A DNA stretch of 40,889 bases from Elusimicrobiota bacterium. GTDB lineage: Bacteria > Elusimicrobiota > UBA8919. Positions 12,860-14,803 of the stretch are shown one piece after another. The position numbers and the translations under genes are program-made. Every line of letters begins with the position of its first letter. Positions within the stretch are counted from its first letter, which is position 1. The stretch spans positions 1 to 40,889 of the forward strand of contig JBDRIG010000050.1 of the NCBI GenBank assembly GCA_043816185.1, in the 5' to 3' direction. A model generated the notes under the pieces. It saw nothing but the letters and a program-made list of their open reading frames with translations, was not told where the DNA came from and did no database searches.

Positions 12860-13210
12860 TTAATGATATAAAAAACCCGTAATAAAGAATACGATAAAAG
12901 CAACAATAAATATGATTACTGAATTTTGTAAGAAGGAAAGGATAATATATAAAATTACACTTGGTTTAGTCTTCCCACCTCTGAGAATAAATTTCTGAAG
13001 AAAAGAAGAATCAAGTTTAATCTCTTTACCTTCGCAATTCGCAATGTAATTTTGATAATGCTCTGATTTTAGTAGAATATTAGCAATAGCAATTATAATG
13101 GCCCCCACCAGTGATTGCCAACCCCATCCCGGACCAGCAAAAAGACCAATACCCAAGCCAGTGCCTATACAAAGAAAAAATTCTGTTCCTGAACTCATTA
13201 TTTTTATCAT
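12860..13210 (-). CDS. Hypothetical membrane protein inside the trp operon
   Basis: 116-aa ORF with about three hydrophobic segments; ATG overlaps the TGA of the duplicated trpG tail. Confidence 0.6.
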
Positions 13211-13256
13211 TTTTGGTTTAACTCCAAAAAGTTTTTTAATAATTTTTTGCCGGGTT
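13206..13256 (-). repeat. Duplicate of the trpG 3' end (direct repeat of 14203-14253)
   Basis: 46/51 identical; reads [15 protein letters not shown] against [15 protein letters not shown] in trpG. Confidence 0.92.
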
Positions 13257-13259
13257 ATT

Positions 13260-14207
13260 TCACTCCATATTTGTAATACCTATACTTTCATTCCACCATT
13301 TTTCAAACGGCGGTTTATTCGGAGTTTTCTTTATCTCGCTATATTGCCCTCTTGCTAATGTGTCCGTTGACGGCACATTAAAACAAGAACCAGCAGAGAT
13401 TAACCATCTGTCGTGAATAACCGACTTAATTTTGTTATCAGATATTACCCTTAATTCACATTTTACATTATTATTTTGGAACTCCTGCTTAAAATCTCTG
13501 AATGAACTTTTTAATTTATCGTCAACTTTGTCATCGGACATCAAAATTTTTATAACTTTTACTTTTTCAATGTCCACCGAATCGGCTAATAATTCCAGTC
13601 CAATCTTTGAAAAATATTTATCAACCCAATAAATGTGTTTTCTGCAAGACCTTATAATATCCTTAAAGTTTTTCTTGTTCGTGAACGGCTTTTCAGGAGA
13701 AATCAATATTGCTTCGGGTGTTGCCGACGGAATGAAATGTATTGCCCTAAATATCGTTTTGATTTTCTTGTCATGCTTTTCAACTTTTTGCTCAATCGCA
13801 TCTATTCTGTTAGTGAATTTTTTATTGGCGGAAACTATTCTTCTTACATTCACAAATACGCGTATAATGCCGATATTTACCTGAATTGCTCTGGGACTGT
13901 TCAATACGCTTGACAACATTGCAACACCATGCTCTGTAAAGGCGTAAGGATTGGCACGACGTAACCCACCCCAACTTGAAATCACAAATTGTGATTTCAA
14001 GTTTTTGAACTCTTCATTACTCAATTGAAACATAAAATCATCGGGAAATCGTTCTATATTTCTCTTTACAGCCTGAACCAATACGCGTGGCTCTACTCCA
14101 TAAAGTTTTGCCAAATCAACACTTATTATTACTTTTTGCCCTCTGATTAAAAATATTTTATTTTCTATCTGCGACGATGGAACACTTATAATTATATTTT
14201 TCATCAT
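13260..14207 (-). CDS. ORF6N-domain DNA-binding protein with C-terminal PLD-like domain (copy 1)
   Basis: [51 protein letters not shown]-terminal [14 protein letters not shown]; start moved to ATG 14207 overlapping the trpG stop. Confidence 0.9.
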
Positions 14208-14803
14208 TTTTTGTTTAACTCCAAAAAATTTTTCAATATTTTTTTGCCTGGTTTTGTTAAAATTGACTCTGGATGAAATTGAATGCCTTCTACGCAACAG
14301 TTGAGAGTTGGAAACTGAGAGTTGAGAGTTTTAAGTCGAAATCCCATGATTTCGTTTTCTTTTGTCAGTGCGGAAATTTCAAAACATTTTGGGAGTGATT
14401 TTTTTTCAACCACAAGAGAATGGTATCTGGTTGCATCAAATGGATTTGGAAGTCCATTGAATATTGTTTTATTATCATGATAAATCATAGATGTTTTTCC
14501 GTGCATAAGTTTTTTTGCATGAATTATTTTTCCACCAAACGCAGCACCTATTGACTGATGACCAAGACATACGCCAAGAATTGGAATTTTTCCAGCAAAA
14601 TGTTTTGCGACTTCTACAGAAATACCCGCTTCTTTTGGAGTACAAGGACCCGGTGAAATTACAATGTGCGATGGCTTAAATTTTTCTATTTCTGAAATTG
14701 TAATTTTATTATTCCGAAAAACTTTTATATTCGGATTTAACTCGCCGAGATACTGAACCAAATTATAAACAAACGAATCGTAATTATCAATAACAAGAAT
14801 CAT
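14204..14803 (-). CDS. trpG: Anthranilate synthase component II (glutamine amidotransferase)
   Basis: [32 protein letters not shown]. Confidence 0.96.

Follow-up and report, generated by a model that had tools for sequence, protein, structure and literature searches.

The stretch of DNA analysed here (the window) comprises 40,889 nt of an Elusimicrobiota bacterium (UBA8919), positions 1-40,889 of contig JBDRIG010000050.1 in assembly GCA_043816185.1, which represents a 1.44-Mb genome in 112 contigs. In its trp operon, a gene for an ORF6N-domain protein is lodged between trpG and trpD, and is enclosed by two copies of the 3' end of trpG. All genes around the trpG-trpD junction are on the minus strand. 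The gene trpE (16302..14827) precedes trpG (14803..14204), which encodes the 199-residue glutamine amidotransferase component of anthranilate synthase (Pfam GATase, E = 8e-56) and has orthologues with 81-88% identity in relatives of the same family. The ORF6N-domain gene (14207..13260, 315 aa; PF10543, E = 3.7e-34) is followed by an open reading frame (ORF) for a small membrane protein (13210..12860, 116 aa) that matches no family and is kept in the congener G001, then by trpD (12842..11784), encoding anthranilate phosphoribosyltransferase (Pfam Glycos_transf_3, E = 2.5e-94), with trpC and trpF further downstream. No minus-strand terminator-like site was found between trpG and trpD.

A repeat search of the window returned an imperfect direct repeat of 56 nt at 13201-13256 and 14198-14253, with 50 matches over 56 positions (89%) and a start-to-start distance of 997. 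Copy A (14198..14253, minus strand) is the functional tail of trpG and comprises its last 16 codons, and copy B (13201..13256, minus strand) is a displaced, untranslated trpG tail. Exactly one ORF, the ORF6N gene, lies between the copies, its stop codon being 4-7 nt away from copy B. Among all offsets from 60 to 3000 in the window, this one alone gives a 50/56 match, the best matches in first-order Markov shuffles of the window (n = 10) were 35-38/56, and these are the only two full-length copies in the 1.44-Mb genome. An earlier note on this DNA had described direct repeats of 51 bp, 997 bp apart and enclosing one gene; the distance and the single gene are confirmed, the extent being slightly longer. 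The five coding differences that it listed were found again, three of them synonymous (CCA/CCC, TTG/TTA, AAT/AAC) and two replacing a residue (ATA/TTA, I/L; AAA/CAA, K/Q). A sixth mismatch lies directly beyond the stop codon, and the longest run that is identical between A and B is 15 nt.

Both copies terminate in ATGA. Copy A contains a GGAG, and the TGA stop codon of trpG (14206..14204) overlaps the ATG of the ORF6N gene (14207..14205). Through these two features, the ORF6N gene probably rides on the transcription and translation of the trp operon. Copy B has no start codon and is directly preceded by an in-frame TAA in the trpG-like frame, and is therefore not translated. Its ATGA is consequently a vestige and not a working stop-start coupling. 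The small membrane ORF still takes its GGAG and its ATG (13210..13208) from copy B. The earlier idea that ATGA couples each tail to the next start thus stands for the trpG/ORF6N overlap and falls for copy B; similarly, the view that both copies are selected tails holds historically, copy B being untranslated today.

Forty relatives were searched with TrpG, and the DNA 3' of trpG was inspected. The site is empty in four of them (G006, G004, G007 and G011), where trpG and trpD either overlap by ATGA or are separated by a few bases, and where the GGAG of the tail serves trpD. The ORF6N gene between trpG and trpD is therefore an insertion, as the earlier note had claimed. Other relatives carry other arrangements. 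In G009, which belongs to another genus of the same family, an ORF6N orthologue (81% identical, with one in-frame TGA) lies directly 3' of trpG and is followed by a membrane ORF and by a remnant, only ~13 nt long, of a second trpG tail. G002 has an Rce1-like (CPBP) gene of 261 aa (PF02517, 1e-22) at the junction. A 41-nt stretch of the trpG tail stands on either side of this gene as a perfect direct repeat, and its downstream copy continues in frame to a stop of its own. A Trm112p-like gene occupies the junction in G017 and G021. The junction ORFs of G005 and G010 (163 and 148 aa) belong to no Pfam family; their reading by eye as PD-(D/E)xK-like or GIY-YIG-like received no Pfam support and was dropped. 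Both the empty and the alternative-cargo alleles that the earlier note had proposed to look for in related genomes thus exist (four empty sites; Rce1-like, Trm112p-like and other cargo). The trpG-trpD junction has the properties of a slot, with conserved flanking genes, cargo that differs between genomes, and a recombination breakpoint in the trpD flank, as described below.

The small membrane ORF is likewise missing from all four empty-site relatives, and a different small membrane ORF is found at the same place in G009. In the window (12838-13210), this ORF is bracketed by a 5-nt duplication, ATGAT, which includes its own start and that of trpD. It follows that the ORF uses the former trpD start, and that trpD has a new start context.

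The native tail was sought by comparison with eight relatives of the family. Four variable positions could be aligned, and the resulting 32 cells were counted by eye. In 23 of them the trpG tail of the relative agrees with copy B, in 5 with copy A, and in 4 it differs from both. This suggests that the downstream, untranslated copy B is the displaced native tail, and that the functional copy A is an atypical version, which probably came in with the cassette from another lineage. Had a duplication been followed by decay of the relic, the opposite would be expected, with a typical functional copy beside an odd relic. The earlier proposal that the inserted gene brings its own trpG tail fits these observations, the tail beside the cassette being the atypical one and the displaced copy being typical of the family. 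A recombination breakpoint inside trpG is not clearly visible, the eight relatives being 14-25% diverged from the window along the whole gene. A search for a donor with the exact 30-nt A-type tail pattern matched none of the metagenome contigs.

The congener G001, a different species, displays the same order of ORF6N gene, relic tail, membrane ORF and trpD in an independent assembly. Residues 64-315 of its ORF6N protein are 100% identical to those of the window protein; the G001 contig ends inside the ORF6N gene, at the palindrome presented below. From 12754 to 14019, the two genomes differ at 2 positions out of 1266 (99.8% identity), compared with ~190 out of 991 (~81% identity) in the rest of trpD, from 11763 to 12753. 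The step in identity at 12753/12754 places a crossover ~90 nt (~30 codons) into trpD. To judge from this step, the block has recently been exchanged by homologous recombination between lineages that are otherwise ~19% apart. RecA and DprA are both encoded in the genome. Pfam integrase and resolvase profiles run over the contigs of the genome detected no recombinase within the window. Two tyrosine recombinases (PF00589), both Xer-sized, are on contigs C74 and C49, and one serine recombinase (PF00239) and a fragment are on contigs C90 and C19. The earlier description as a single-gene unit devoid of integrase agrees with these results, since one ORF lies between the repeats and recombinase matches are found on other contigs only. 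The locus does not have the properties of an integron cassette, as the only strong palindrome is intragenic and the contig is without integrase; no search specific for IntI was made. None of the public sequencing runs holds the window stretch, the best one sharing 0.08 of the sampled words. Three runs that were compared with it yielded short contig pieces of relatives, among which neither an empty-site junction nor an excision or circle junction was seen, a result that counts neither for nor against mobility; the ~1-kb excision circle suggested in the earlier note is conjectural.

The ORF6N domain is a KilA-N-type DNA-binding domain. It occupies residues 16-101 of the protein and matches the complete PF10543 profile (positions 1-86 of 86) with 117.3 bits, the cut-off being 27.8. 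The protein also matches PDC-S05 of PADLOC (PDLC04869, E = 5.1e-66, residues 5-270), a candidate defence family for which the available parts of the literature gave no function. At least 7997 homologues were scored among 8000 candidates, and they are annotated solely as ORF6N domain-containing proteins or candidate defence genes. The two-domain form of ~302 aa is ~60% identical across records of Elusimicrobiota, Omnitrophota, Nitrospirota, Desantisbacteria and Firestonebacteria. Homologues that are 76-85% identical are found in unrelated contexts, such as between a recO-like gene and glyQ, beside methylases, or beside an mscL-like gene.

The C-terminal domain (residues ~165-315, coding region 13260..13757 on the minus strand) contains the invariant motifs WxDKYFS and HDRW...N..STDT..RGQY in the protein alignment. 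The N-terminal domain matches anti-repressor families of phages in PHROGs, and no PHROG match was obtained for the C-terminal part. Some leads point to a possible PLD-like fold. Below the Pfam cut-offs, the C-terminal domain matches MIT_C (PLD-like; E = 0.09, and ~0.1 in both paralogues), as well as Vmethyltransf_C (0.0011). Its nearest Atlas features are PLDc_2 (0.89) and MIT_C (0.87/0.86), which are leads only, being all below 0.9. The canonical PLD (HKD) motif is HxK(x)4D(x)6GSxN; the invariant motif HDRW(I/L)IS....(Y/F)N.PSTDT of the ORF6N proteins has an arginine where the PLD motif has a lysine. A profile search of PDB sequences with the C-terminal domain returned nothing better than E = 0.12, and NCBIfam gave a sub-threshold match to Rha only. 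Neither a LAGLIDADG nor a GIY-YIG endonuclease was found in the protein, PF10543 being the sole Pfam match at E = 0.01 or better. A likeness of the C-terminal domain to RhuM was also considered and rejected, as its alignment by hhalign to a RhuM protein encoded in this genome had a probability of 0.2.

The window contains a second insertion (19501..21049, minus strand), located between hisB and hisH and consisting of an ORF6N paralogue (20842..19922, minus strand) and decayed sequence. The paralogue has both domains and is 60% identical to the protein encoded at trpG. The genes hisB and hisH abut with an ATGA overlap in the six relatives out of six where the junction is visible. The 1549-bp insert displays only a 7-nt duplication, TATGATA, and no long tail repeat. 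The ~420 nt of decayed sequence that follow the paralogue include a SEC-C-like remnant (...GRNDTCPCC). Within the family, long flanking repeats are found at three of ten two-domain ORF6N loci. Besides the locus of the window, these are a locus present in G007 and G004, with a perfect 129-nt repeat that starts with the final two codons of the gene upstream, and a locus in G001 where a methylase tail is repeated (35/45).

A survey of other phyla covered 80 loci, which mostly encode ORF6N proteins of ~175 aa, and 76 of them were testable. A locus was counted when the best 30-nt window shared between the upstream and downstream flanks had at least 24 matches out of 30. This threshold was reached at 11 of the 76 ORF6N loci, compared with 1 of 66 controls with a downstream flank offset by 1 kb, and 5 of 179 neighbouring ORFs of 100-500 aa from the same loci. 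The Fisher odds ratio for ORF6N genes versus neighbouring ORFs is 5.9 (p = 0.001), a rough estimate since related genomes are not independent. On viral contigs, 3 of 27 ORF6N loci reach 25/30, versus none of 19 controls. The repeats of the survey are mostly the tail of a co-directional upstream gene, and the start of the relic is about 0-46 nt away from the ORF6N stop codon in most cases. The longest is a prfB tail of 257 nt (L126, 82% identity), with stops in the relic. The others include a carB-like tail of 129 nt (L090, 81%), an hsdM tail of 107 nt (L084, 88%), where the ORF6N gene lies between hsdM and hsdS, and a repeat of 65 nt (L115, 82%). The short (~175-aa) ORF6N proteins found with a tail duplication are without the C-terminal domain. 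The earlier note had allowed that its reading would fail if no other ORF6N-type gene showed a host-tail duplication; the survey removes this objection.

The carB-like locus L090 is informative on the origin of the two tails. They differ at 24 nt, 19 of which are third codon positions, and the affected codons comprise 18 synonymous and 3 non-synonymous ones. The GC content at third positions is 0.72 in the relic, 0.79 in the gene body and 0.58 in the functional tail, and the frame of the relic is open and host-like. This pattern indicates that each copy has evolved in a separate lineage as a working tail, the relic being the native one. Elsewhere in the genome of the window, there is a third, distant ORF6N-like frame (L003, G000:C19:7248-10321; 36% identity, one internal TAA), and at ~140 nt from it a resolvase-type recombinase gene fragment with an internal TAG.

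A perfect palindrome of 15+1+15 nt (13973..14003) is located inside the ORF6N-domain coding sequence. When the best palindrome was sought in the 150 nt after the codons for RFPxDF, at least 11 paired positions were found in 79 of 88 ORF6N loci, always at the same place, over the codons for NL(K/R)SQ(F/I)V(T/I)SS. Covariation was analysed with a structure of 15 pairs in 87 aligned loci (L001, L002, L035-L040, L057, L058, L072-L151). The proportion of paired cells is 90.9%, compared with 79.5% in column shuffles, none of 500 reaching the observed value, and with 24-45% when the partner was slid by 1-3 columns. Changes have occurred on both sides in 11 of the 15 pairs, versus 7.8 in shuffles (1 of 500 reaches it), and there are 156 double-change cells versus 48.8 ± 7.4. 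The encoded residues track the nucleotides, with the pairs K(AAA)-I(ATT), K(AAG)-T(ACT), R(AGG)-T(ACC) and R(AGA)-I(ATC). G-U combinations make up ~2% of the cells and are not in excess over expectation among mismatches, so that the constraint looks like one on double-stranded or hairpin DNA, and not on RNA. A similar palindrome is found in the 5' leader at L084 and L105, and arms of at least 10 nt are present in 27 of 28 distinct viral loci. The conserved pairing makes it likely that the palindrome is a binding site of the ORF6N protein itself, and it may have a role in recombination. In the paralogue of the his operon, a 27-nt palindromic unit is doubled in tandem and in frame (20608-20661, NLRCQIVTS NLRFQIETS), and a duplication of this kind is also present in the database protein P0090.

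Cassettes bracketed by repeats are also found without ORF6N genes. Comparison of the 1.44-Mb genome with itself uncovered three further small cassettes with locus-specific, two-copy repeats. At L062 (G000:C82:16000-24500), a RhuM gene lies between 50-nt repeats (C82 18902-18951 and 20009-20058, 92% identity), which duplicate codons 1-17 of the GmrSD-HNH gene located downstream. A 74-nt repeat with 98.6% identity, which takes in the final 16 codons of a Mg-chelatase-like gene, brackets an MNT-HEPN pair (L063, G000:C30:2000-6500), and an RHH-ParE pair (L064, G000:C89:19500-21500) has a perfect intergenic repeat of 58 nt. With the Rce1-like cassette of G002, there are four such cases, and it follows that structures of this kind are made without the need for an ORF6N protein in cis. 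The control set of the survey also includes some neighbouring genes between strong repeats (29-30 of 30; L108, L092, L148), one of them a 375-aa ORF that appears Fic-like by eye (L108, 679-1806), and repeat-bracketed single genes are thus not confined to ORF6N. The restriction-modification/GmrSD cluster at L062 includes two RhuM-family genes besides the bracketed one, and the upstream copy of the repeat forms a relic ORF of 17 codons behind an ATGA overlap.

The balance of these observations tips slightly in favour of considering the ~1-kb segment that extends from copy A to the ORF6N stop codon as a recombinase-free, single-gene selfish cassette, supplied with a replacement tail of 16 codons for trpG. 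In the founding event, a donor containing the 3' part of trpG and the ORF6N gene would have recombined homologously within the resident trpG, and the far end of the donor would have been joined illegitimately directly upstream of the resident tail, in a one-sided event of homology-facilitated illegitimate recombination. Selection would then have favoured survivors that kept a whole trpG, plus a leader for the cassette gene and for the downstream gene. Once formed, the duplicated tail would offer homology on both sides to a naive trpG-trpD junction, where the RecA of the host would spread the cassette after uptake of DNA.

Several points weigh against the selfish cassette so conceived. The founding event is unobserved, homology-facilitated illegitimate recombination being inferred from the end product only. 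The foreign nature of copy A is suggestive and not proven, as there are only six differences and the divergence of trpG is 14-25%, and G002 has two A-like states. The 15-nt run common to A and B is too short for efficient recombination by RecA, and direct excision or re-integration through the copies would be rare. Seven of the ten two-domain loci have no long flanking repeat, including the his-operon paralogue and the ORF6N orthologue beside trpG in G009. Finally, right junctions within ~0-46 nt of the ORF6N stop codon are tighter than random illegitimate joining predicts.

This tightness is one of the arguments for true homing, a homing-like spread through a nuclease-like domain having been held possible in the earlier note. 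In this view the ORF6N protein, by means of its PLD-like C-terminal domain or of a partner, would cut the naive trpG tail, and repair would copy the cassette together with a recoded, resistant tail. The functional tail is indeed recoded relative to the displaced one, and the two independent insertions in trpG (window and G002) displace the tail within ~10 nt of the same point, after conserved codons. Flanking repeats are about six-fold enriched at ORF6N genes, the conserved palindrome could serve as a cis site, and the PLD-like leads are found in the C-terminal domain. The anatomy is also identical to that of the mobile ORF (mORF) gene hybrids, which are driven by an endonuclease in Allomyces, according to the available part of PMC3630166. 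Homing is nevertheless held to be unlikely. The unrelated contexts of close homologues speak against a fixed target specificity, and where the repeats are perfect (129, 58 and 41 nt), the occupied allele retains an entire naive target, which a homing nuclease would cut again. The repeat anatomy is the same around nuclease-free cargo (Rce1-like, RHH-ParE, MNT-HEPN), the short ORF6N proteins with a tail duplication lack the domain that would cut, and no nuclease family is matched at any curated threshold. Alternatively, the gene may have duplicated its target site or the local sequence when it inserted, giving two identical copies of 56 nt in the window that have drifted since. In favour of this, some loci that look young have repeats that are perfect (129 nt in G007/G004, 58 nt in this genome, 41 nt in G002) or nearly so (74 nt in this genome). 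This explanation is improbable, as drift is expected in an untranslated relic, yet copy B is the family-typical tail and the functional one is odd. At L090, 19 of 24 differences are at third positions and the relic frame is open and host-like, and we know of no transposition mechanism that gives duplications of 30-257 nt.

The two tails may also be regarded as the attL and attR of a site-specific element at the 3' end of trpG, mobilisable in cis, with an integrase that acts in trans or was lost. Elements that restore the 3' end of their target gene produce the same picture. A preprint describes, in its available part, an integrative module with a tyrosine integrase beside paired KilA-N/ORF6N regulators (10.64898/2026.05.20.726742). 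Little credence is given to such a remnant. The two Xer-sized tyrosine recombinases, the serine recombinase and the fragment are all absent from this contig; repeats of ~30 to 257 nt with sequences that are unrelated between targets do not suit one site-specific enzyme; and it is implausible that many loci decayed independently until one gene alone was left, the junctions coinciding with its start and stop. An assembly artefact, or a chance similarity in AT-rich sequence, is very improbable. The assembly is indeed split into 112 contigs, some of which have terminal overlaps of 130-141 nt that are typical of assembler artefacts. However, with six mismatches in 56 positions the copies are not a k-mer overlap, shuffles never exceed 38/56, and the gene order recurs in the assembly of another species (G001), with an ORF6N orthologue directly after trpG in G009. 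The mixing of two strains in one assembly, which the earlier note had named as a possible refutation, is contradicted by the independent assembly of the congener.

The closest known counterparts of the selfish cassette are the mORF gene hybrids of fungal mitochondria, described for atp6, atp9, cox2 and nad3 of Glomus and for atp6 of Allomyces macrogynus. As far as the available part of the report goes, the native C-terminus resembles its counterparts in close relatives, with which it groups, the inserted one has diverged, most of the differences being synonymous, a horizontal origin is inferred, and an endonuclease was biochemically shown to drive the mobility in Allomyces (PMC3630166). The accessible text on Endoconidiophora likewise reports C-terminal duplications of atp6 and cob beside free-standing homing endonuclease genes (PMC6279837). 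The locus of the window shares with these hybrids a host gene core, an in-frame foreign C-terminal piece, a mobile ORF and a displaced native C-terminus: copy A finishes trpG in frame and is atypical, and copy B is native-like and 997 nt downstream. It differs by its location in a biosynthetic operon of a bacterial chromosome, by its protein, which is of the ORF6N/KilA-N type instead of LAGLIDADG or GIY-YIG, by the trpG tail that also gives the cassette a ribosome-binding site and a stop-start overlap, and by the recurrence of the ORF6N anatomy at many host genes and in many phyla. What appears new here is thus the tail-carrying gene-hybrid anatomy in bacteria, without the LAGLIDADG or GIY-YIG endonuclease that defines the mORFs.

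Integrative and cis-mobilisable elements that integrate at the 3' end of a gene rebuild that gene, the element-side copy completing it. The direct repeats of the window similarly duplicate the 3' end of the target, and the element-side copy completes trpG; unlike such elements, the ORF6N unit and its contig are without recombinase, a single gene is carried, and the length and sequence of the repeats vary freely between targets. In the minimal mobile elements of Neisseria, cargo is exchanged by flank recombination in a slot between conserved genes, and the trpG-trpD slot resembles them by its varying cargo and flank recombination. Homology-facilitated illegitimate recombination occurs in naturally transformable bacteria, according to the available part of PMC3240628; its one-sided anchor and illegitimate join would yield a foreign and a displaced tail, as found here. 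Neither the Neisseria elements nor this type of recombination predicts a systematic duplicate of the upstream tail, or an association with one protein family.

The match of the ORF6N protein to PDC-S05 recalls the defence systems, many of which have extra nested genes (10.1101/2024.01.29.577857, available part), and several ORF6N genes are situated inside restriction-modification operons (L084). In the window, on the other hand, they are found in trp and his operons and not in defence systems. Because of the tail duplications, it is suggested that the embedding of ORF6N genes reflects their mode of insertion and not a defence role. The main text of 10.1101/2024.01.29.577857, in its available part, makes no mention of PDC-S05, KilA or RhuM. 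No treatment of the tail duplication or of the palindrome was found in the available portions of the literature on ORF6N, and supplementary files may hold more. A literature search returned no paper joining KilA-N with a free-standing homing endonuclease, or KilA-N with APSES and LAGLIDADG.

A wider proposition can be formulated, to which only a low probability is given. ORF6N/KilA-N-type genes might be widespread, unrecognised single-gene mobile elements of bacteria and archaea, which would insert with a replacement tail at the 3' ends of host genes, the insertion being promoted by their own protein with the palindrome as its cis site. If so, their embedding in restriction-modification and other operons would reflect movement and not defence. 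Should the cassette reading be right, a very large protein family (at least 7997 homologues) would have to be seen in a new light, as selfish cassettes living at the expense of host operons, and bacterial chromosomes would harbour a gene-hybrid trick so far described in fungal mitochondria. Phylogenies would be affected, given that housekeeping genes may have a foreign 3' end, and the footprint of functional tail, gene and relic tail would be searchable and would date and orient horizontal transfers. The main interest lies in the generalisation of the pattern across a very large uncharacterised family, and in the unexpected conserved cis element. With arms that covary at the cost of amino-acid changes, the palindrome offers a testable handle on what ORF6N proteins bind.

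Some further features were noted in the window and in the genome. A Bro-N-domain gene (9166-10008) follows trpF, where trpB and trpA might be expected. It matches PF02498 (E = 1e-14) and PDC-S13 of PADLOC (E = 1.6e-126), and is a single gene of the KilA-N type at the end of the trp operon; no flanking repeat was found around it. Within trpG, a variable low-complexity insert of short near-repeats (CTCAAC/TCAACT units, 14294-14333) precedes conserved codons. It occurs at the same place in L005, L007, L008, L013 and L025, with variable length and sequence, and is missing in some relatives. Repeat pairs on contigs C27, C6, C37, C55, C43, C9 and C110 were initially candidates for additional cassettes, and were discarded as members of a dispersed repeat family. 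The members of this family are ~117-186 nt long and give ~60-90 hits with 93-100% identity, mostly in intergenic regions and often at contig ends. An example is provided by L066 (G000:C27:6600-11300), with copies at ~1598-1714 and 2983-3099, and others are on C6, C37, C43, C55 and C9.

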